This document shows positions 3,642 through 59,409 of a DNA stretch of 64,000 nt, one piece after another. Both the position numbers and the translations under genes were made by a program. Position 1 is the first letter of the stretch. Every line of letters begins with the position of its first letter. Source of the stretch: Escherichia virus TH58; the sequence record MT446423.1. One strand, written 5' to 3'. The notes under the pieces were generated by a model. It saw only the letters and a program-made list of their open reading frames with translations. It searched no databases and was not told where the DNA came from.

Positions 3642-4742
3642 ATGAAAGTTATGTTTATCCCATCTCGTGCGGTCCCATTTAATCCTGACCGTGTACAAGG
3701 TGGCCTTGAAGCAGTACATTTAAATGTGTTGAAATATTTAGTTTCTATTGGTGCTGATATTGATTATATCGGTTTTGATAATGACACGTTTGGTGACTGG
3801 AAAGTTACACACCATCCTGTTGGTCATCTGACTAAATTCAGTCTAGGTATGAGTTATACTATGGCTCGTAAGATTGTTGAACTAGCCGGCATCCATGAAT
3901 ACGATTTTGTTGTTACTATGGAACCGACTAAACTAACCGTTCAGGCAATTAAAGACGCAGGTCTCTCTAAAGTTCATAAGAATTTTATGGCAACACCATT
4001 TGAACCGGTATCTCGTGGCATTGTTCAAATTTGGGACCAGACTATTCAAATTCATAAGAATGGTGGTAAGAGTTATGCTCCTACTAAAGCCTTCCGTGAA
4101 TTTGAACGTAAATATTGTTATATGACTTCAGGTCTGACTGACAAAATTGATTATGATTATTGGCGAGCAAATCCGTTGTTTGAAGCCGAAGATTATCCGG
4201 TTATTTGTTTGAATGAGAAACCTGAAGTTCTTCCGGCGACTGATTTGATTATTAGTGCACAACGTTATGACACTAAAATGCGTCGTACTGATGTTGCTCT
4301 TGAAGCGATTAAAGCACTAGGCGAAAATGGTGTAGGATATTGTCCAAGCAAATGGGCACCACCAGCTAAATATCCTGTTATTATTGATGCTCAACATAGT
4401 GAAATCATGGAACGTCTTAAAACAGCTAAAGCACTTATTAATACGTGTCCTGACACAGGTACGGTAGAGAATAGTTCTATTGAAGCCATCTCTAAAGGTG
4501 TCCCTGTAATCCAGTTAGTTTTTAAGGATTATCCTCATGCGACATTCGAATACGACCCAGATACTGTGCGTGTAGAAATTGATTCCTCTACTCCTAAGAA
4601 AGAAGTAGTTGCGCTTTACACAAAAGCTGTATTAGAATTCACTGACACATACGAAGCTCGAGTTAAACGTGCTGAAGCAGTATGGAAGAAGTATAATCGA
4701 GATGCAGTTGTTGCGATGTGGGATAAAATCTTCACAGCGTAA
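3642..4742 (+). CDS. putative GT-B fold glycosyltransferase (accessory gene, substrate unknown)
   Basis: 366 aa; N-terminal MKVMFIPSRAV...GGLEAV and C-terminal GTVENSSIEAISKGVPVI resemble GT-B/GT4 signatures; no similarity to T4 alpha-gt or beta-gt as recalled. Confidence 0.4.
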   Translation: MKVMFIPSRAVPFNPDRVQGGLEAVHLNVLKYLVSIGADIDYIGFDNDTFGDWKVTHHPVGHLTKFSLGMSYTMARKIVELAGIHEYDFVVTMEPTKLTVQAIKDAGLSKVHKNFMATPFEPVSRGIVQIWDQTIQIHKNGGKSYAPTKAFREFERKYCYMTSGLTDKIDYDYWRANPLFEAEDYPVICLNEKPEVLPATDLIISAQRYDTKMRRTDVALEAIKALGENGVGYCPSKWAPPAKYPVIIDAQHSEIMERLKTAKALINTCPDTGTVENSSIEAISKGVPVIQLVFKDYPHATFEYDPDTVRVEIDSSTPKKEVVALYTKAVLEFTDTYEARVKRAEAVWKKYNRDAVVAMWDKIFTA

Positions 4743-9053: not shown

Positions 9054-9090
9054 GTTTACAACTAAGTAGGACTATGATATAGTAGTCCTA
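9054..9090 (+). promoter_or_regulatory. early-type promoter with -10 inside an inverted repeat
   Basis: GTTTAC 9054-9059, TGa-TATAGT 9075-9083, inverted repeat TAGGACTA 9067-9074 / TAGTCCTA 9083-9090. Confidence 0.5.
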
Positions 9091-9565: not shown

Positions 9566-9603
9566 GTTTACATCAAGGTAGGATTATGGTATAGTAGTCC
9601 TAC
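9566..9603 (+). promoter_or_regulatory. early-type promoter with -10 inside an inverted repeat
   Basis: GTTTAC 9566-9571, TGg-TATAGT 9587-9595, inverted repeat GTAGGATTA 9578-9586 / TAGTCCTAC 9595-9603 (one G-T position). Confidence 0.5.
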
Positions 9604-9623: not shown

Positions 9624-9824
9624 ATGGCTAAGCTTTTTAAAGATGTTGAAATTGGTGAAAAATTTGTTCTGAATAATGGTCAGCAGCTTATTCGTGTAGC
9701 TTCTATCGCCGGACAAACTCATAACTGTATCGCCCCAACGTGTTGGACTCGATTCTTTATTGAAGATGATACTGAATGTTTAACTGTTGAAGAGCTTTTT
9801 GAACGTTCTGATATGGCCGAATAA
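9624..9824 (+). CDS. hypothetical protein (66 aa)
   Basis: ORF track; RBS GAGGAA upstream. Confidence 0.55.
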   Translation: MAKLFKDVEIGEKFVLNNGQQLIRVASIAGQTHNCIAPTCWTRFFIEDDTECLTVEELFERSDMAE

Positions 9825-9827
9825 AAT

Positions 9828-9862
9828 TGTACAAACTCTTGAGAGCAGAGTATAATGCTCTC
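9828..9862 (+). promoter_or_regulatory. sigma70/early-type promoter with TATAAT inside inverted repeat GAGAGCA / TGCTCTC
   Basis: TTGTAC 9828-9833, TATAAT 9851-9856, 7-bp inverted repeat 9841-9847 / 9856-9862. Confidence 0.45.
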
Positions 9863-9900
9863 ATGGATTACAAAAACATTAATCAATTGAGGAAATTAGC

Positions 9901-10347
9901 ATGTCCAAATATTTAACTCGTAAAGACCTTCTGGCAGTTGGCGGTGAAGTTGTTGCAGTAGTTCGTAATGGCGAATACGGTTCTGAAGTTTCTAAAGAGT
10001 TTCGTTCTCGTGAAGGTTTTTACTTCTTTGTTAAAGGTTCATCTGATTGGCGTCAAGTAGCAGCACGATTCTTTGTAGGACGTCAACGTTCTAAACAAGG
10101 GTTGGATGCAATTCTTTCTCACATTCGTCAAGGCCGTTCGCAACTAGCCCGTACCATGGGCACTAACAATATTGAATATGATGTAATCTTTGTTGCAGCT
10201 AAGAACATGAAACCACTGACTACTGGTTATGGTAAAGGACAATTGGCTCTAGCATTCACTCGCAATCATACATCAGAATATCAAACACTCACTGAAATGA
10301 ACCGTCTTCTGGCAGATAATTTCAAATTCATTCTGCAGAGTTACTAA
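9901..10347 (+). CDS. ndd: nucleoid disruption protein Ndd
   Basis: 148 aa; strong match to recalled T4 Ndd ([40 protein letters not shown]). Confidence 0.92.
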
Positions 10348-10354
10348 TTTATAC

Positions 10355-10386
10355 GGGCCTATTAAGTTGGCCCTTTAATTTATTTT
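10355..10386 (+). terminator. terminator-like hairpin GGGCC-N9-GGCCC + T-rich tract
   Basis: Follows ndd stop; TTTAATTTATTTTTT downstream. Confidence 0.55.
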
Positions 10387-10400
10387 TTGAGGTAATTAAA

Positions 10401-10691: not shown

Positions 10692-12017
10692 ATGCAATTG
10701 AATTCTCGTAATCTAAAAAGTATTATTGATAACGAAGCCTTAGCATATGCTATGTACACCGTTGAAAACCGTGCAATCCCAAACATGATTGATGGATTTA
10801 AGCCGGTTCAACGTTTTGTAGTTCATCGTGCATTAGATTTGGCTCGTGGTAATAAAGAAAAATTTCATAAACTTGCGTCAATTGCAGGTGGTGTAGCAGA
10901 CCTTGGATATCATCATGGTGAAATCTCTGCGCAAGACGCAGGTGCTTTGATGGCTAATACTTGGAATAATAACTTTCCTCTGTTAGATGGTCAAGGAAAC
11001 TTTGGTTCTAGAACAGTCCAAAAAGCTGCAGCATCTCGTTATATTTTTGCTCGTGTAAGTAAAAATTTCTATAACGTATATAAAGATACTGAATATGCTC
11101 CAGCTCATGAAGATAAAGAACACGTTCCACCAAAATTCTATCTTCCTATTATTCCGACAGTTCTTTTGAATGGTGTCTCCGGTATTGCAACCGGTTATGC
11201 AACAAATATTCTGCCTCATAGTTTTAAATCGGTCAAAAAGGCGGTATTACAAGCTCTTCAAGGTAAAAATGTCACTAAGCCAAAAGTTGAATTCCCAGAA
11301 TTCCGTGGTGAAGTGCATGAAGTTGATGGGCGTTATGAGATTCACGGAACATACAAGTTCACATCTCGTACTCAAATGCAGATAACTGAAATCCCATATA
11401 AATTCGACCGTGAAACGTATGTGAGTAAGGTTCTTGACCCGTTGGAAGACAAAGGTCTAATCTCATGGGAAGATGATTGTGGTGAACACGGCTTTGGGTT
11501 TAAGGTGAAGTTCCGTAAAGAGTACTCGCTTCCTGATGATGAAGAGCTACGTCATGAAAAAATCATGAAAGATTTTAGTCTCATCGAACGTCGCTCACAA
11601 AACATCACAGTGATTAATGAAAAGGGTAAATTAGCGGTCTACGATAACGTAGTGGACTTAATCAAAGATTTTGTTGAAGTCCGTAAGACTTACGTTCAGA
11701 AACGTATTGACAACAAAATCCTTGAATCTGAAAAAGCATTTAAACTGGCTTTTGCTAAGGCACACTTCATCAAAAAAGTTATCAGTGGCGAAATTGTGAT
11801 TCAAGGCAAGACCCGTAAAGCTTTGACTGAAGAGCTAGCACAAATCGAAATGTACAAAGAACATGTCGATAAACTGGTGGGTCTTAACATCTTCCATATC
11901 ACTTCTGACGAAGCACGTAAACTGGCAGAAGAAGCTAAAGCTAAGAAAGAAGAAAATGAGTATTGGAAGTCTACTGATGTTGTGACAGAGTACACTAAAG
12001 ACTTGGAGGCGCTTTGA
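10692..12017 (+). CDS. 52: DNA topoisomerase II medium subunit (GyrA-like)
   Basis: 441 aa, same as T4 gp52; GyrA-type N-terminus (AMYTVENRAIP, GFKPVQR, HHGE). Confidence 0.93.
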   Translation: MQLNSRNLKSIIDNEALAYAMYTVENRAIPNMIDGFKPVQRFVVHRALDLARGNKEKFHKLASIAGGVADLGYHHGEISAQDAGALMANTWNNNFPLLDGQGNFGSRTVQKAAASRYIFARVSKNFYNVYKDTEYAPAHEDKEHVPPKFYLPIIPTVLLNGVSGIATGYATNILPHSFKSVKKAVLQALQGKNVTKPKVEFPEFRGEVHEVDGRYEIHGTYKFTSRTQMQITEIPYKFDRETYVSKVLDPLEDKGLISWEDDCGEHGFGFKVKFRKEYSLPDDEELRHEKIMKDFSLIERRSQNITVINEKGKLAVYDNVVDLIKDFVEVRKTYVQKRIDNKILESEKAFKLAFAKAHFIKKVISGEIVIQGKTRKALTEELAQIEMYKEHVDKLVGLNIFHITSDEARKLAEEAKAKKEENEYWKSTDVVTEYTKDLEAL

Positions 12018-12165: not shown

Positions 12166-12204
12166 AGACCTATCAAAACAAAACAACCAAATTGGAGAAA
12201 TAAA

Positions 12205-21452: not shown

Positions 21453-24400
21453 TTATTCAATCCACTCGAATTTAACAGATTTATTCACAGGGTCTGGAAT
21501 AATGCGGACATTACCAATTCGTAAGAAATCACGAATAGTAAGATTCCCCATTGTAGCATTATCAGACGGTAAAGCACCGATATCAGATGGTTGAGGAGGG
21601 TTACCTCCATCAAATACCTGAACAAAACTTGACCAAGAGTTTTTGGTTTTCTGCCATGTACGTGTCCAGCGAGTGGTACGCGCTTCTGGAGTTGTTGGAT
21701 AAGTAATCCAATCTTGGTAAAGAGAATCAAGCGTATTACCAAACTGAGTCAAAGTACCAGGAGATTTAACTTCTTCGCCACGTTCTAAGTACGGAAGTCC
21801 AGTCACTTCATTAGTTTTTTCAACCATTTTAAAATAACCTGGGAACTGGTTATAAGTGGCCGAATCATTAATGTCAATTGACCAGAATCCTACAGTATCA
21901 GATGTTGGCGCACGAGTATATAAATCAGATGTTTTAGTACCCTGAGAACGAATTCTCGAGTTAACAGTCAAACCACCTGAATTTATAGTAGCACCTTTGG
22001 CAATGATTAAGCTTTCACCAATCGTAACCTGACCGGATTGATTATTAATTGATAATGGACGTAATCCATTAAATCCACCGCTCTGATCACCTGCTGCAGT
22101 GAGCATAAAATAGGTGTCATTACCAGCATTACGAATAAAGAATCCGTAATTTCCGTTTATTGCTCTAAAAGCATTTGACGATTTACTGATAATTTCGCCG
22201 GTTGCAGTAACTGAACTACCGAATGTTGCAACGCCATTCGCATTCAATGAACCCGAAGCATTTACATTTATCGGCATTACAGTACCATTGATATTAAACA
22301 TTATATTTCCGGCTGTATTGCGCTGAGAATAAAAGTGATGAGATGTTTCATCACCAACTTCAAATACAGTAGAACGCGTTGTATCTGGTCTGTCACTAAA
22401 CTGATTTCCCCAAACTTTGATATCCATCGTCTGTGCTGGGTTAGTTCCAGTTTGAGGTCCTTTCTCAAAAATCAAACGAGATGCTGTTCCAGTTTTAGAA
22501 ATAGTTAATGTATTTACCGTAACTGCCCCACCAAACGTAGCAGTACTAGATGATACAAGAGGGGCACTCAGATTCGTTTGTTGGGTTAAGGTTAGTGAAC
22601 CATTAACCGTCTGTGCAATGTCCCTACGAATGAACTGAGATGAATCTAGGCCATCTAATAAATTTGCGTCAGCAGCTTTTGCTTTTAATGGCAAATAATT
22701 TGCTAATACACGGTTTAATTCATATGGTGATACCGCATAGCTATTTTTCTCATATGATTCTAAAGGTTGTGTTGAACCAACTGTATCATCACCAACGAAT
22801 GTAATAGAACCGGATGAAGTTTTAACGAATCCACGAATTGCCGTAGTAGCAGCCCATGTTGGTTCAGACTGGACAATCCATTTTAAATTCTTAGGCGATA
22901 CAGCAGTATTAGCAGAAGTTCCTGTTACAGTTTCAGCCCGAGTAGCAACCTTAATTACGCCTTCAGACGTTTCAGTGGACTTAGTCCCTAAAAGCTTTTT
23001 AGGAGTAATAAGAACATCATCTAAAGTTCCTGCATTAGATTCTGCCTGAGTCGCTACGCGAAGTGTACCGCGTTGTGTTTCATTTGCTTTAGAAATATCA
23101 AGAGTATAATGGTTCCACAAGGTTCCTTCTTCAATAAGTCCGGAATCAGAATTAACACTGGTACGGTCAGAAGAATCAAAATAAGTTTTAATTTTCAGTG
23201 GAGTCGAGATACGAGTATCATCAGTTCCAGTATCAAATTCAACTTGCGTAGCAATTTCGGCTATGCCGGATAATCCTTCCGTAGCTTTCCTACCATTTAA
23301 TGTCTTAGGCGTTACTGCACGTGTATAATCAGTCCCAGCATTAGTTTCTGTTTGCGTAGCAATTTCAATTAAACCAATACGTCCATCAGTAGAAGTTTTC
23401 TTATGTAGTGTTTCAGGAGTTACTACAGCGTGAGAATAACCTGCTTGTGATTGTCCAGCAATAACTTCACTATCAACAGCTAAAATTACTGCACCTTGTT
23501 GAGCATAAGTTGCTTTATATTGGTCAAGGGCTTTAGGAGAAATAGTTAAATTATTTACTGTTTTATTATAAACGTTAGTGCCTGCAGCCCCACGAGTTTC
23601 AGCAGGAGTAGCAGAAGTAGTCGATACATATTTAACTATACCCGATAGTGTTTCGGAACCCTGACGTGCCTGTAATTTCTTAGGCGTAATAATCGTTGTG
23701 TCATCAATACCAGCATCAGTTTCAGCCTGAGTAGCAATTTCAGCAAGACCACGACGAGTTTCAGTTGCTGTACGCTCATTTAGTTTTTTAGGCGTAACAA
23801 TAGTATCGTCCACAAATGATGCTATGGAATTCTGGTTAACTTGCGCTGTTGTAGCAATTTTGGCGATACCACGTCGAGCTTCAGTTGCTGTACGATTTGC
23901 CAACGTTTCAGGAGTAATAGCCACTTCTTTAGCTGGAGTATTCTCTAAATCAACATTTGCTTGCGCTTGAGTAGCAAGAGCAATAACACCTAAACGAGCT
24001 CGTGTAGCATCAGATCCAGCATCAACGCGTTCTACCGTAGGGACATTCTGTTGCACAACCCAATAACGTGTACCAGCAACGGTGTCTTCGATATACGATA
24101 ATTCTAATACAGGAACATATGAAGTAGTGCCATTGAATTCTAGTTCAGTAACAGAGACCCATTGAGCATCAGGTGGATATTCAGAACGTTTAGGGAACTG
24201 AAGCAACGCAACAGAAGAAGCAATTGTATCACCTTCGGCAGCTTTAATTTTTACTGTTTGGCCTTTACGCATGTAGTTCATTGAAATTTTAACGGTGTCA
24301 CCACTCAAAATTCCGGTAGGCAGCGTAAGATTAATAGTTCCGGTTGCATCGTTATTTGTGCCAAAAATAAGAACTTCTTCATTTGGACGAATATTTGAAT

Positions 24401-25428: not shown

Positions 25429-26346
25429 ATGGATTTAGAAATGATGTTGGATGAAGATTACAAAGAAGGTATTGCACTTGCTGATTTTAGTAACATTGCA
25501 TTGGCAGCCGCATTAAACAACTTTGAAGACGGCGATAAAATTACTGTTCCGATGGTTCGACATGTAATCTTGAATTCAATTCGTAAAAACGTAGTGATGT
25601 TCCGTAAGCAAGGCTATACAAAATTTGTATTGTGTATGGATAATGCTACTTCAGGTTATTGGCGTCGTGACTTTGCTTACTATTACAAGAAAAATCGTAA
25701 AACCGATCGTGAAGCTTCAAAGTGGGATTGGGAAGGATATTTTACTGCACTCCATCAAGTTGTTGATGAGATTAAGAAATACATGCCATACGTTGTAATG
25801 GATATTGACAAGTATGAAGCGGATGACCATATTGGTGTATTAACTAAATATTTGTCATTAGCTGGACATAAGGTATGTATTGTTGCATCAGACGGTGACT
25901 TTACACAATTACACAAATATCCTAACGTTAAACAGTGGTCACCACCACAGAAAAAATGGGTTAAAATTAAGAACGGTTCTGCTGAAATTGATTGCATGAC
26001 TAAAATTCTTAAAGGCGACCGTAAAGACGGCGTTGCATCTGTTCGAGTTCGTGGCGACTTCTGGTTTACTAGAGTTGATGGTGAACGAACTCCGAGCATG
26101 AAAACAACGATTATTGAAGCAATTGCCAATGACCGTTCTCAAGCTGAAGTATTATTAAGTGCAGAAGAATATAAACGGTATCAAGAAAATTTGGTTCTCA
26201 TTGATTTTGATTATATCCCTGATAATATTGCTTCAACCATTATAGAGTATTATAACTCATATAAACCACAACCTAAAGGCAAGATTTATTCATACTTTGT
26301 AAAATCTGGTCTTTCTAAATTAACAAGTGTAATTAATGAATTCTGA
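25429..26346 (+). CDS. rnh: RNase H (5'-3' exonuclease, FEN-1 family)
   Basis: 305 aa, same as T4 RNase H; DFAYYYKKNR, YEADDHI, SDGDFTQLHKYPNVKQW motifs. Confidence 0.93.
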   Translation: MDLEMMLDEDYKEGIALADFSNIALAAALNNFEDGDKITVPMVRHVILNSIRKNVVMFRKQGYTKFVLCMDNATSGYWRRDFAYYYKKNRKTDREASKWDWEGYFTALHQVVDEIKKYMPYVVMDIDKYEADDHIGVLTKYLSLAGHKVCIVASDGDFTQLHKYPNVKQWSPPQKKWVKIKNGSAEIDCMTKILKGDRKDGVASVRVRGDFWFTRVDGERTPSMKTTIIEAIANDRSQAEVLLSAEEYKRYQENLVLIDFDYIPDNIASTIIEYYNSYKPQPKGKIYSYFVKSGLSKLTSVINEF

Positions 26347-26353
26347 GGTAAAC

Positions 26354-26623
26354 ATGGCTAAGAAAGAAGCAGTTGAATTTAATCAAGATGTGCATGGTGA
26401 AGAACTGGCTAAACTAGTCAAGGAAGCTTCCGATAACAAACTTAAAATTTCTGGTTATAATGAACTGATTAAAGACATTCGTACTCGTGCTAAAGAAGAG
26501 CTTGGCGTCGATGGAAAAATGTTTAACCGTTTGTTGGCTCTTTATCATAAAGACGCTCGTGATCAATTTGAAGCTGAAAACGAAGAGGTAGTCGAGCTTT
26601 ATGACACAGTTTTCACTAAGTGA
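26354..26623 (+). CDS. dsbA: dsDNA-binding late transcription protein DsbA
   Basis: Track ORF 26336-26623 trimmed to ATG 26354 (GAGG RBS); 89 aa matching recalled T4 DsbA. Confidence 0.85.
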   Translation: MAKKEAVEFNQDVHGEELAKLVKEASDNKLKISGYNELIKDIRTRAKEELGVDGKMFNRLLALYHKDARDQFEAENEEVVELYDTVFTK

Positions 26624-29128: not shown

Positions 29129-29139
29129 TATACAATCAG

Positions 29140-29165
29140 ATAGGGTTATGTTATAGTAGCCCTAT
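29140..29165 (+). promoter_or_regulatory. -10-like TGt-TATAGT embedded in inverted repeat ATAGGGTT / AGCCCTAT
   Basis: Same architecture as 9067-9090 and 9578-9603; -35 element weak. Confidence 0.4.
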
Positions 29166-35357: not shown

Positions 35358-35386
35358 TTTACACACCACAAGGATTGTGGTACAAT
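35357..35386 (+). promoter_or_regulatory. early-type promoter with CCACAA-gga-TTGTGG inverted repeat in spacer
   Basis: GTTTAC 35357-35362, TACAAT 35381-35386, inverted repeat 35366-35380. Confidence 0.5.
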
Positions 35387-37444: not shown

Positions 37445-37731
37445 TTAAATTAACTGTGGCTGTATTATCTATTGGTCTCCTAGTTGGATGTACTCAGGAT
37501 GTGCCAGTAAGCCCTAAAGAAACTTTACATCCTTCATGGCCTACGCCTATTTCCGAATACAACCAGAAATGGCAAGTAAAGGTTATTGATGGTAATCCAT
37601 GGGTTGGAATGCCGTTTGAAGACTCTCAAGAATTTCGTATCTGGTTAAACGACGTAAAAAGATATGTACATGACCAGAAGACTATGTTATGTTATTATCG
37701 TAGTGGTTTAAAAGAGGAAAAATGCCAATGA
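37441..37731 (+). CDS. o-spanin (outer-membrane lipoprotein spanin subunit, pseT.2-like)
   Basis: 96 aa; signal peptide with lipobox LLVGC; overlaps i-spanin stop. Confidence 0.7.
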   Translation: MIKLTVAVLSIGLLVGCTQDVPVSPKETLHPSWPTPISEYNQKWQVKVIDGNPWVGMPFEDSQEFRIWLNDVKRYVHDQKTMLCYYRSGLKEEKCQ

Positions 37732-37946
37732 CTAAAGAACAGCATGAATACATTAAAGGGCTTATCTATGAATCTGAAATGGCGGCTATGATTTATGGGC
37801 GACAGATTCAACGATTAGAATCTTTGCCTCCGACTAATGACCGCTTGTTAGTTCAGTCTCGTGCTAATCTGAAAAATGAATATCAGAATAAGTGGGCAGT
37901 AGCTACTAAAGCTCTTCATGAGTATATTGGATCTTTAGTAAAATAG
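37722..37946 (+). CDS. hypothetical protein (74 aa)
   Basis: ORF track. Confidence 0.5.
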   Translation: MPMTKEQHEYIKGLIYESEMAAMIYGRQIQRLESLPPTNDRLLVQSRANLKNEYQNKWAVATKALHEYIGSLVK

Positions 37947-37981
37947 TTTACAAACTCTCGGGAGCGGAGTATAATGCTCCT
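37946..37981 (+). promoter_or_regulatory. early-type promoter with TATAAT inside inverted repeat GGGAGC / GCTCCT
   Basis: GTTTAC 37946-37951, TATAAT 37970-37975; core GAGTATAATGCTC shared with 9848-9860. Confidence 0.45.
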
Positions 37982-38003
37982 ATGGATAATTGAGGAAATC
38001 TAA

Positions 38004-38302
38004 ATGAAAACATTACTAGAGAATTACATCAAACGGTCCGATGAGTATATTGATATCTGCCGTGGAATGTCACTTGCCAATTATGACAAAGATGCAGCAA
38101 AGGCATTAGATGAAGCAGGTAAAGCTCTTCGTAAAGCTGCTAAAGAAAAAGGGGTGGATTTGCAACAACTCAAAAGTCATATGATTAAATTTATTTCTTC
38201 AAACGTTAGAAGTAAGTCAATTAATAAAAACGTTGCTGAAATTAATAAAGACCGTCGCGAGCATAACATTCGTATTCTTGAAACTTTCTTAGGAATAAAA
38301 TA

Positions 38303-38303
<1 letters not shown>
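38004..38303 (+). CDS. hypothetical protein (99 aa)
   Basis: ORF track; RBS GAGGAAA. Confidence 0.55.
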
Positions 38304-39389
<1,086 letters not shown>

Positions 39390-39390
<1 letters not shown>

Positions 39391-44068: not shown

Positions 44069-44108
44069 GTTTACTTTGGTACAGGTTATGTTATTATAGA
44101 CCTGTACC
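44069..44108 (+). promoter_or_regulatory. early-type promoter; -10 region bracketed by 8-bp inverted repeat GGTACAGG / CCTGTACC
   Basis: GTTTAC 44069-44074, TATTAT 44092-44097, inverted repeat 44078-44085 / 44101-44108. Confidence 0.45.
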
Positions 44109-44138
44109 AACAAACAACTTAAACATCTGGAGAATAAA

Positions 44139-45154: not shown

Positions 45155-45183
45155 TTTACATCCAAGGACGGATTAGAGTATAA
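45153..45183 (+). promoter_or_regulatory. possible early promoter (GTTTAC ... TATAAT, 19-nt spacer)
   Basis: GTTTAC 45153-45158, TATAAT 45178-45183; spacing non-optimal. Confidence 0.3.
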
Positions 45184-45207
45184 TGATTTCTTTAGTAAGT
45201 GGAAAAT

Positions 45208-59182: not shown

Positions 59183-59409
59183 TGCGTTATTCAATTGAAG
59201 ATGTCTTTAATAATGATGAAGAATTTGAAACTGAAATTAAATTCTTAATGGAAAAGTATCGTCTACGACGTCAGGATATTCGTATCCTGGCAGACCACCC
59301 CTGTGGTGAAGACGTCCTTTATATTAAAGGGAAGTTTGCTGGGTATATCGACGAGTATTTTTATACAAAAGATATGGGCATTGATATGCATATGAGAGAT
59401 ATTGGGTAA
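59182..59409 (+). CDS. hypothetical protein (75 aa)
   Basis: ORF track. Confidence 0.5.
   Translation: MRYSIEDVFNNDEEFETEIKFLMEKYRLRRQDIRILADHPCGEDVLYIKGKFAGYIDEYFYTKDMGIDMHMRDIG

Follow-up and report, generated by a model that had tools for sequence, protein, structure and literature searches.

The short regions upstream of ndd (site A) and of an open reading frame near pseT (ORF 38004-38303; site B) are likely to be two copies of one subfamily of PeSL cassette, in which the hairpin acts in read-through RNA. The sites are members of the PeSL class, as a subfamily of it, and not a new regulatory system, and their promoters had already been predicted in RB69. What is new is a third copy of the subfamily and its placement before at least eight different genes, the covariation of the stem, the bias of its wobble pairs to the sense strand, and the promoter-less hairpins found upstream of ndd. 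Throughout, "the window" is the whole stretch of DNA analysed, 64,000 nucleotides long.

Layout of the two promoter cassettes

The window belongs to a Mosigvirus, an RB69-like coliphage of the T4 type. The gene order around site A is T4-early-like, with small ORFs, ndd, ac and gene 52 all on the + strand. More than 150 RB69-like Mosigvirus coliphages (e.g. PNJ-6) match the ndd region at 96-98% identity, and the match to T2 and to Klebsiella phages is confined to the neighbouring topoisomerase gene. On the pseT side the order, again on the + strand, is rnlA, alc, pseT.3, pseT.2, pseT.1, ORF 38004, ORF 38303 and pseT. The elements of the two sites are as follows.

Site A, upstream of ndd:
9828-9833, + strand: -35 hexamer TGTACA, identical to RB69 Pe:165022
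9840-9863, + strand: hairpin, with 5' arm TGAGAGCA (9840-9847), loop GAGTATAA and 3' arm TGCTCTCA (9856-9863)
9851-9856, + strand: -10 hexamer TATAAT, 17-nt spacer from the -35
9865-9875, + strand: candidate RegB/S1-like box GGATTACAAAA, 2 nt past the hairpin; about +3 to +13 when counted from the predicted start
9887-9903, + strand: Shine-Dalgarno region TTGAGGAAATT and ndd ATG, the Shine-Dalgarno itself from 9889
9901-10347, + strand: ndd coding sequence, the gene downstream of site A
10356-10390, + strand: terminator-like hairpin GGGCC-N9-GGCCC with a T-rich run, just 3' of ndd

Site B, upstream of ORF 38004-38303:
37947-37952, + strand: -35 hexamer TTTACA, 11/12 consensus match, corresponding to RB69 Pe:136687
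37960-37982, + strand: hairpin, with GGGAGCG (37960-37966), loop GAGTATAA and TGCTCCT (37975-37981)
37970-37975, + strand: -10 hexamer TATAAT, 17-nt spacer from the -35
37984-38006, + strand: box GGATAATTGAG, then Shine-Dalgarno GAGGAAAT (from 37992) and the ATG of ORF 38004-38303

Each cassette takes up all of the space that separates the stop codon of one gene from the ATG of the next. At site A the upstream ORF (9624-9824) ends in a TAA at 9822-9824 and the -35 starts 3 nt later, and at site B the TAG of the pseT.1 homologue (37722-37946; stop at 37944-37946) abuts the -35 directly, with 0 nt between them. Downstream of ORF 38004-38303, which is the homologue of RB69ORF231c, lie ORF 38303-38494 and then pseT (38491-39390). 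Both sites are the top sigma-70-type matches of their regions, point at the downstream gene and have the T4-early form of the -35, (G)TTTAC. Nolan et al. (2006, PMC1524935) predicted 58 early-promoter sites in RB69, including Pe:165022 (ndd) and Pe:136687 (RB69ORF231c); site A is identical to the first and site B is one base off the second. Their paper describes promoters only and nowhere mentions an inverted repeat, a stem-loop or a hairpin. As judged by their hexamers and spacing, sites A and B are near-consensus promoters of the host sigma-70/T4-early kind and belong to one predicted class, and therefore both genes should turn on immediately after infection. The terminator-like hairpin after ndd has an RB69 counterpart (TransTerm 'ac<--ndd', 164462-164479), and with site A in front and this hairpin behind, ndd forms a self-contained predicted unit of promoter, gene and terminator.

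The core arms of the hairpin are GAGAGC (9841-9846) and GCTCTC (9857-9862) at site A, where the perfect repeat extends to 8 bp with an 8-nt loop, and GGGAGC (37960-37965) and GCTCCT (37976-37981) at site B, where the stem has five Watson-Crick pairs, or seven pairs with the two G.T pairs (G.U in RNA) of the + strand. At site A the -10 is in the hairpin loop and reaches one base into the 3' arm, which fills the discriminator and ends on the base predicted as +1 (9863); the predicted +1 of site B is 37982. Folded as RNA, site A gives -14.6 kcal/mol (z = -3.5), a value equalled by 1 of 200 shuffles. Site B gives -11.3 kcal/mol (z = -1.5), with 15 of 200 shuffles as good, and so is not significantly structured when taken alone.

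The 13-mer GAGTATAATGCTC has exact matches in the window at sites A and B only, and the 38-nt pattern ACAAACTCT-N11-TATAAT-N6-ATGGAT is matched by both sites and by 0 of 100 shuffles. The preliminary description had reported an inverted repeat bracketing the -10 at both sites, which is real and reaches 8 bp at A; it had placed the two repeats upstream of ndd (9901-10347) and of ORF 38004-38303 near pseT, which is the context we find; and it had described a shared 13-base core, which is exact, although the identity between the sites is longer and spans about 40 nt, from the -35 to about +6, ending at ATGGAT. ATGGAT puts an AUG at the predicted +1, and leaderless translation starting there was considered and rejected: the short frame at A has 17 codons and that at B has 3, and in relatives the place of ATGGAT is taken by ACGGAT, GTGGAG or ACTGGAG.

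Selection on the stem and its strand asymmetry

The family was collected by scanning IMG/VR with the 20-base pattern ACAAACTCTT-N6-AGAGTATAAT, in which the content of neither arm is fixed and the 3' arm is unconstrained; a 15-base pattern, ACAAACTCT-N11-TATAAT, was too unspecific, with mostly unrelated contigs among the matches listed. The flanks AACTCTT and AGAG are preset by the search pattern and were excluded from the assessment of conservation. An alternative small helix in the spacer, ACTCT/AGAGT, can also be drawn, and both of its halves are preset by the same pattern. The scan gave T4-like contigs of 155-172 kb with 17 distinct family members, whose arms include GAGAGC/GCTCTC, GGGAGC/GCTCCC, GGGAGC/GCTCCT, GGGGTC/GACCCC, GGGACC/GGTCCT, GGGACC/GGTCCC, GGGGCC/GGTCCC, GGGAGC/GTTCCC and GGGATC/GGTCCT. 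The arms of the lone chance match, in a giant-virus MAG, are non-complementary.

Among the 17 members, 98.5% of the cells of the 8-bp helix are paired, compared with 35-54% when the 3' partner is slid, with the reservation that the sequences are related and cell counts therefore overstate the number of independent events. Three stem pairs have changed on both sides (G-C/A-U; A-U/G-C; G-C/C-G/U-A). The covariation score and the percentage paired were each reached by 0 of 500 shuffles, and RNAalifold independently predicted the same helix. The covariation of the family alignment therefore removes the doubt over the structure of site B. A scan of the whole 64-kb window against Rfam gave no match at the gathering threshold. 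The preliminary description had proposed to look for the inverted repeat at homologous positions of related phages, and it is indeed kept there, with compensatory changes.

The same covariation bears on the possibility that the palindrome over the -10 is an operator, through which a dimeric DNA-binding regulator would control ndd together with ORF 38004, for instance in early shut-off. A palindrome in this position is the classical layout of a repressor operator, 13 exact bases are common to A and B, and the shut-off of T4 early promoters is "not completely understood" (PMC3014915). A sequence-specific dimer, however, would require the opposite of what the arms do: they drift and yet stay complementary (compare GAGAGC/GCTCTC, GGGGTC/GACCCC and GGGACC/GGTCCT), so that the half-site is not conserved and arm positions 2, 4 and 5 vary together with compensating changes in their partners. 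On this ground we reject an operator. Moreover, the G.T mismatches fall on one strand only, which is meaningless for recognition of a duplex, other early-promoter families of the same phage have quite different arms, and orthologous sites that lack the promoter keep a hairpin of unrelated sequence (see below). Control by an operator is accordingly very improbable.

The stem is also asymmetric between the strands. Its 136 cells comprise 118 Watson-Crick pairs, 16 G.T pairs on the sense strand and 2 C.A. At the sites in the window, too, the antisense fold is weaker than the sense fold, at site B for example by about -7.2 to -7.6 versus -11.3 kcal/mol. PNJ-6, a close relative, was assembled as a complete genome and scanned for T4-early-type promoters, and a promoter was counted as a hairpin promoter when a fold of -9 kcal/mol or better lay across the -10. 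Such a hairpin was found at 16 of the 66 promoter-like matches on the early strand and at 0 of 31 on the other strand (Fisher p = 0.002), a contrast which indicates that hairpins over the -10 are a general property of the early promoters of this phage. The sense fold was better than the antisense fold at 15 of these 16 promoters (mean difference -4.1 kcal/mol, Wilcoxon p = 0.0006). The asymmetry argues for a single-stranded form of the sense strand, most obviously RNA, as the form that folds; a cruciform of both strands or a protein site in duplex DNA would be unlikely.

A structure in DNA might nevertheless matter, either as a hairpin of the non-template strand or a cruciform that modulates the open complex, or as a recombination hot spot for the exchange of cassettes and the formation of PeSL mini-circles. 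In several unrelated-looking families hairpin and -10 stand in a fixed register, site B resembles an inserted cassette, and crossover points in RB49 and phi1 have been mapped in or beside PeSL stem-loops (PMC2839356). Against this, a cruciform needs both strands, and the antisense arm has C.A mismatches and a fold that is weaker by about 4 kcal/mol; the open complex melts the 3' arm only; and homologous recombination between cassettes requires sequence identity and not a hairpin. We regard an explanation at the level of DNA as quite unlikely. The fixed register hints at a link to promoter function for which the RNA-boundary explanation given below does not account. G.T pairs are possible in single-stranded DNA too, so a DNA hairpin of the non-template strand is compatible with the pairs observed.

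Beyond the Mosigviruses, we compared the region upstream of ndd in eight other genera. Seven of the eight have a stable hairpin (-11.5 to -16.6 kcal/mol) at the same position, directly upstream of a conserved box, tGGAG/GGAT-ATAAAAC...TTGAGGAAATT-ATG. The stems are unrelated in sequence, for example GGCCG/CGGCC in the T4-like RB59, GGGCC-uucg-GGCCC in Karamvirus and GGGAGC-cua-GCUCCC in Marfavirus, among others. Dhakavirus is the sole other genus in which a promoter, TTTACA-17-TATAAT, is threaded through the ndd hairpin (CGAGAAUC/GGUUCUCG, with one U.G pair); six of the eight genera have the hairpin without a promoter, and an Acinetobacter phage has an ndd promoter with no hairpin. The retention of the hairpin without the promoter in six of eight genera means that the role of the hairpin is separable from control of the promoter, and indicates that regulating the promoter is not what the hairpin is for.

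The inverted repeat could instead be functionless, a by-product of the copying of cassettes or of consensus preferences for a G-rich spacer and for C at positions -3 to -1. RB69 early promoters do prefer C at -3 to -1 (Nolan et al., PMC1524935), site B alone is not significantly structured, and an early-promoter family with no hairpin, CCAAGGAYGG...GGAGTATAAT (at 45155 in the window), has a conserved spacer, showing that paralogy by itself can produce such conservation. The double compensatory changes at three stem positions, with pairing at 98.5% versus 35-54% for slid partners, are not what a by-product would give, nor are the strong strand asymmetry and the retention of unrelated-sequence hairpins at promoter-less orthologous sites, and we consider this explanation highly implausible. 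A PeSL-type cassette with a sense-strand hairpin under selection is, in our judgement, very likely.

Cassette families and their relation to known systems

The A/B family has three copies in PNJ-6: those at 59200 and 30766 correspond to sites A and B, and the one at 135751 is outside the window. The genome contains at least 13 further hairpin promoters, with other families including TAGGA (nine copies) and AGACCT. By their sequences, the promoter "families" of the phage appear to be paralogous cassettes, most, although not all, with a hairpin. In T-even relatives the A/B cassette precedes at least eight different genes, as judged by their N-terminal sequences. In the Tequatroviruses RB3 and ime09 the homologue of ORF 38004 has its ATG directly next to, or overlapping, the stop codon of pseT.1, suggesting that the cassette at site B (about 57 bp) is an insertion in the Mosigvirus lineage. 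The pattern fits the idea of PeSLs as regulatory cassettes that disperse and recombine. Given the third copy and the at least eight different downstream genes, the likeness of A and B is best explained by paralogy of cassettes; their near-identity would reflect common descent or recombination between cassettes and not a dedicated regulator. The common regulation that had been proposed for the two genes thus survives in part: there is one design and one early class, but no evidence for a dedicated regulator.

PeSLs were defined in RB49 and phi1, where the stem-loops lie mostly between the -35 and -10 or overlap the -10 box, and where G.T pairs were highlighted (Arbiol et al. 2010, PMC2839356); they were later extended to T4/PST, with stems of the form AGNA-loop-TCNT, and to KVP40/nt-1 (Comeau et al. 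2014, PMC4122927). The cassettes studied here share with them a strong early promoter of the sigma-70 type, AT-rich sequence upstream and a stem-loop over the -10 with G.T pairs; they too occur in many copies per genome and before varied small genes, and possibly beside indels. Sites A and B each have the promoter, the stable stem-loop, the AT-rich intergenic placement from stop codon to Shine-Dalgarno and ATG, and repetition in the genome, and the insert of about 57 bp at site B relative to RB3 and ime09, together with the eight or more downstream genes, may point to a PeSL-type association with indels. The TAGGA family of the window (9055, 9567 and 29129) fits the description of the T4/PST PeSLs, and the A/B family is a second subfamily. 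It differs from the published PeSLs in that the stem is not polyG/polyC and has no U-tract after it. The literature that we found reports PeSLs for RB49/phi1, T4/PST and KVP40/nt-1, and none for RB69-like Mosigviruses or for the ACAAACTCTT-stem-AGAGTATAAT-stem' subfamily. Covariation, sense-strand bias and promoter-less orthologous hairpins, all of which we find here, are absent from the published PeSL description.

The stem-loops of PeSLs have been proposed to terminate or attenuate upstream transcription and to act as recombination linkers in the shuffling of small genes (PMC2839356). If the first function applied to sites A and B, the hairpin would be an intrinsic terminator or attenuator that stops upstream transcription exactly at the next promoter. 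It is sense-strand and intergenic, one RB49 PeSL stem-loop cut lacZ expression as strongly as rrnB T1 (PMC2839356), and several RB43 TransTerm terminators lie inside predicted early promoters (e.g. Pe:4005, with a terminator at 3977-3995). None of the 17 family members, however, has a U-tract: there are 1-4 T in the 10 nt after the stem, and tails such as ATGGATTACA and ATGGATAATT do not give a GC-rich hairpin followed by a U-tract. The stems are just 6-8 bp, with 8-nt loops and folds of -11 to -14 kcal/mol, our terminator scan of the window calls neither site, and neither is among the 31 RB69 TransTerm terminators, which do include a canonical one right after ndd. On the absence of a U-tract and of a terminator call, a canonical intrinsic terminator is rejected for the A/B subfamily, and termination or attenuation of this kind as the function of the hairpin is unlikely.

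Two other arrangements are similar in part. The T4 genes e, soc, 49 and I-TevI have hairpins at internal promoters that sequester the ribosome-binding site in read-through transcripts, with a 3' arm that includes the Shine-Dalgarno or the AUG. As in those genes, the promoter here is inside an inverted repeat and the hairpin can fold only in RNA initiated upstream; unlike in them, the 3' arm at A and B ends at about +1 (9863 and 37981), with the Shine-Dalgarno 25 nt (A) or 10 nt (B) beyond it. Promoters with the layout that sequesters the ribosome-binding site do occur in PNJ-6, as tctcctctggtt...aaccagaggaga at 69192 and 81978. In coliphage N4, the promoters of the virion RNA polymerase, a phage-encoded single-subunit enzyme, are the hairpin itself (a 5-7 bp stem with a 3-nt loop). 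The promoters at A and B are likewise tied to a short DNA hairpin, but they have the full sigma-70 pair of -35 and -10, and early genes of the T4 type use the host polymerase.

A possible role at transcript boundaries

In the reading that we prefer, of a PeSL-type cassette acting through read-through RNA, the parts would be the promoter, an 8-bp hairpin with the -10 in its loop and a 3' arm ending at +1, a GGA(G/U) A-rich box and the Shine-Dalgarno. The embedded host sigma-70 promoter (T[T/G]TACA, 17 nt, TATAAT) would initiate early transcription afresh near 9863 or 37982. Since the 3' arm ends at the predicted +1, the transcript from this promoter would lack the hairpin, and only RNA reading through from upstream would have it. 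Because the hairpin lies upstream of its own start and its wobble pairs form on the sense strand only, we infer that it acts in read-through RNA. At site A this RNA could come from the window promoters at 9055 and 9567, and the terminator scan found no terminator between them and the site A hairpin.

The hairpin may then mark the 3' boundary of the upstream message. This could happen by attenuation of the incoming polymerase, or, once the neighbouring GGA(G/U) has been cleaved, by a block to 3'-to-5' exonucleases, and the two routes may combine; the downstream gene would be re-expressed from the embedded promoter. As there is no U-tract past the stem, a barrier to exonucleases or processing is somewhat likelier than true termination. 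We would put the chances evenly for and against the hairpin being such an RNA boundary element. The start sites, the read-through and the 3' ends at A and B are ones that we infer from the DNA, and a search of the literature for genome-wide maps of 5' and 3' ends (TSS, Term-seq) gave no usable T4 or RB69-like set.

Every family member, and most of the promoter-less orthologues, has GGA(G/U) and an A-rich run 2-4 nt past the stem; examples from relatives are GGAGAAUAAAC, GGAGUAUAAAA and GGAUUAUAAAA, as well as GGAGAATAAAC and GGAGTATAAAA. The target of RegB/S1 in T4 early mRNAs is an 11-nt sequence, GGAGRAYARAA, with GGA(G/U) variants (PMC1702504, PMC3014915). The box of site A, GGAUUACAAAA (9865-9875), agrees with GGA(G/U)RAYARAA at 10 of 11 positions, being of the GGAU form with C at position 7, and that of site B, GGATAATTGAG, agrees at 9 of 11, also in the GGAU form. 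There are only five RegB-like boxes on the + strand of the window, all of them intergenic. The boxes at the two sites resemble RegB/S1 targets in being intergenic, in early transcripts and single-stranded in RNA that starts at the promoter. They differ from the T4 targets in that both are of the GGAU form, which in T4 is rarely cleaved (at just 2 of 30 sites; Durand et al. 2006, PMC1702504), and in that the site A box has C at position 7, which was never found in cleaved T4 RNAs (PMC1702504). We therefore offer RegB cleavage at the window boxes as a hypothesis drawn from this resemblance.

A more elaborate version would join these parts into a three-part module. In read-through RNA the hairpin, lengthened by a UCU:GGA extension, would cap the upstream message and mask the RegB/S1 site, whereas RNA started at the promoter, having no 5' arm, would expose the site at +3 to +13, so that RegB could cut off the triphosphate end of this RNA and set the timing of its decay. 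We consider this decidedly unlikely. If it were true, one short element would give the mRNA of a gene different fates according to where its transcription began.

For the two sites themselves, the result mainly tidies the annotation, by placing early promoters predicted in RB69 within a published class, the PeSLs. For that class, the covariation, the sense-only wobble pairs and the persistence of the hairpin without a promoter argue that the PeSL stem-loop acts at the level of RNA and is more than a linker for recombination or a canonical terminator, and the constant association of the RegB-like box with the stem-loop links a candidate processing site to it. Compact parts that combine a promoter with an insulator could serve in phage engineering. 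For the phages, the analysis offers a hypothesis on how those of the T4 type may insulate their closely packed units of early transcription from one another and control when each is active.

The GGA(G/U) box and the terminator-like hairpin after ndd

Two hairpin-bearing early promoters of the window, site A (upstream of ndd) and site B (upstream of ORF 38004-38303), are followed by a short box in the early transcript, and ndd is in addition followed by a terminator-like hairpin.
9865-9875: GGA(G/U) and A-rich box, 3' of the site A hairpin
37984-37994: GGA(G/U) and A-rich box, 3' of the site B hairpin
10356-10390: terminator-like hairpin GGGCC-N9-GGCCC with a T-run, directly 3' of ndd

The GGA(G/U) box and the A-rich run behind it always lie 2-4 nt 3' of the hairpin, at sites A and B, in relatives with the same type of cassette (L071, L132, L141, L154, L158) and at the loci from the ndd-upstream comparison of other genera (L001, L005-L007). 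The box reads GGAU in the window phage and GGAG in several relatives and in promoter-less orthologues. It lies far upstream of the true Shine-Dalgarno sequence and, as judged from its agreement with the cleavage consensus GGAGRAYARAA, is a candidate RegB/S1 site. Extension of the helix by UCU:GGA pairing would mask the box in read-through RNA only, that is, in transcripts started at an upstream promoter.

The hairpin after ndd was not called by our terminator scan of the window because its loop of 9 nt exceeds the limit of 8 nt; its RB69 counterpart is the TransTerm terminator 'ac<--ndd' (PMC1524935 supplement). Between site A and this hairpin, ndd forms a monocistronic unit. For the gene behind site B, the RB69 annotation compared with ORF 38004-38303 is RB69ORF231c (136316-136552 of the RB69 record, L166), which at 78 aa probably lacks its 5' end.

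Other early promoters in the window

Hairpins are found at further early promoters, in more than one position, and one family has none across the -10 element.
9055-9090, 9567-9602, 29129-29165: TAGGA family, hairpin of 8-11 bp spanning the -10
44070-44105: TTTACT-16-TATTAT inside a hairpin (TTGGTACAGGTT...AGACCTGTACCAA; stem of at least 12 bp, -17.7 kcal/mol)
35358-35386: TTTACA-17-TACAAT upstream of rnlA, inverted repeat CCACAA-gga-TTGTGG
45155-45184: CCAAGGAYGG(T)TKGAG-TATAAT, conserved spacer

The TAGGA-family arms pair as TAGGACTA/TAGTCCTA, as TAGGATTA/TAGTCCTA with a U.G pair, and as TAGGGTTA/TAGCCCTA with a compensatory change and a U.G pair; the antisense folds are 3-7 kcal/mol less stable than the sense folds, and the stems match the AGNA-loop-TCNT stems of the promoter-early stem-loops (PeSLs) of T4 and PST. 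At 44129, 3' of the hairpin promoter at 44070-44105, stands a perfect RegB-type Shine-Dalgarno sequence, GGAGAATAAAATG. The rnlA repeat lies entirely within the spacer, with none of it across the -10, and this layout is another positional subclass of PeSL. The CCAAGGAYGG(T)TKGAG-TATAAT family, which recurs in the close relative PNJ-6 (L014-L016) at 23553, 70181, 70738, 113499 and 114519, has no hairpin across the -10; thus, cassette paralogy alone can yield spacer conservation.

Hairpins over promoters outside the window

PNJ-6 (L015, L016) carries early promoters with a 7-12 bp inverted repeat around the -10 and the start site.
69192, 81978, 121047 (PNJ-6 record): 3' arm of the repeat is the Shine-Dalgarno sequence (tctcctctggtt...aaccagaggaga)

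The ribosome-binding site would here be hidden in read-through RNA only, a layout known from T4 e, soc and I-TevI.

In RB43, several TransTerm terminators lie inside predicted early promoters (PMC1524935 supplements), among them the following.
Pe:4005 with 3977-3995
Pe:11463 with 11434-11454
Pe:12201 with 12170-12191
Pe:26374 with 26343-26364

Nolan et al. 2006 (PMC1524935) did not comment on this overlap. RB69, in contrast, has canonical terminators just upstream of its promoters in about eight cases, instead of inside them.

In IMG/VR, environmental phage contigs that form a separate, unrelated group share the sequence cccgcTTTACAaactctgcc(g/a)cCTATGcTATAAT..aaCATAGGAGaa, at no fewer than 12 loci among the matches listed (L025, L029, L041, L068, L078, L082, L086, L098, L104, L113, L131, L135). 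Here an inverted repeat, CCTATG/CATAGG, extends across the -10 and, with its 3' arm, overlaps the Shine-Dalgarno sequence. The design of a hairpin over a promoter therefore recurs beyond the T4 group.
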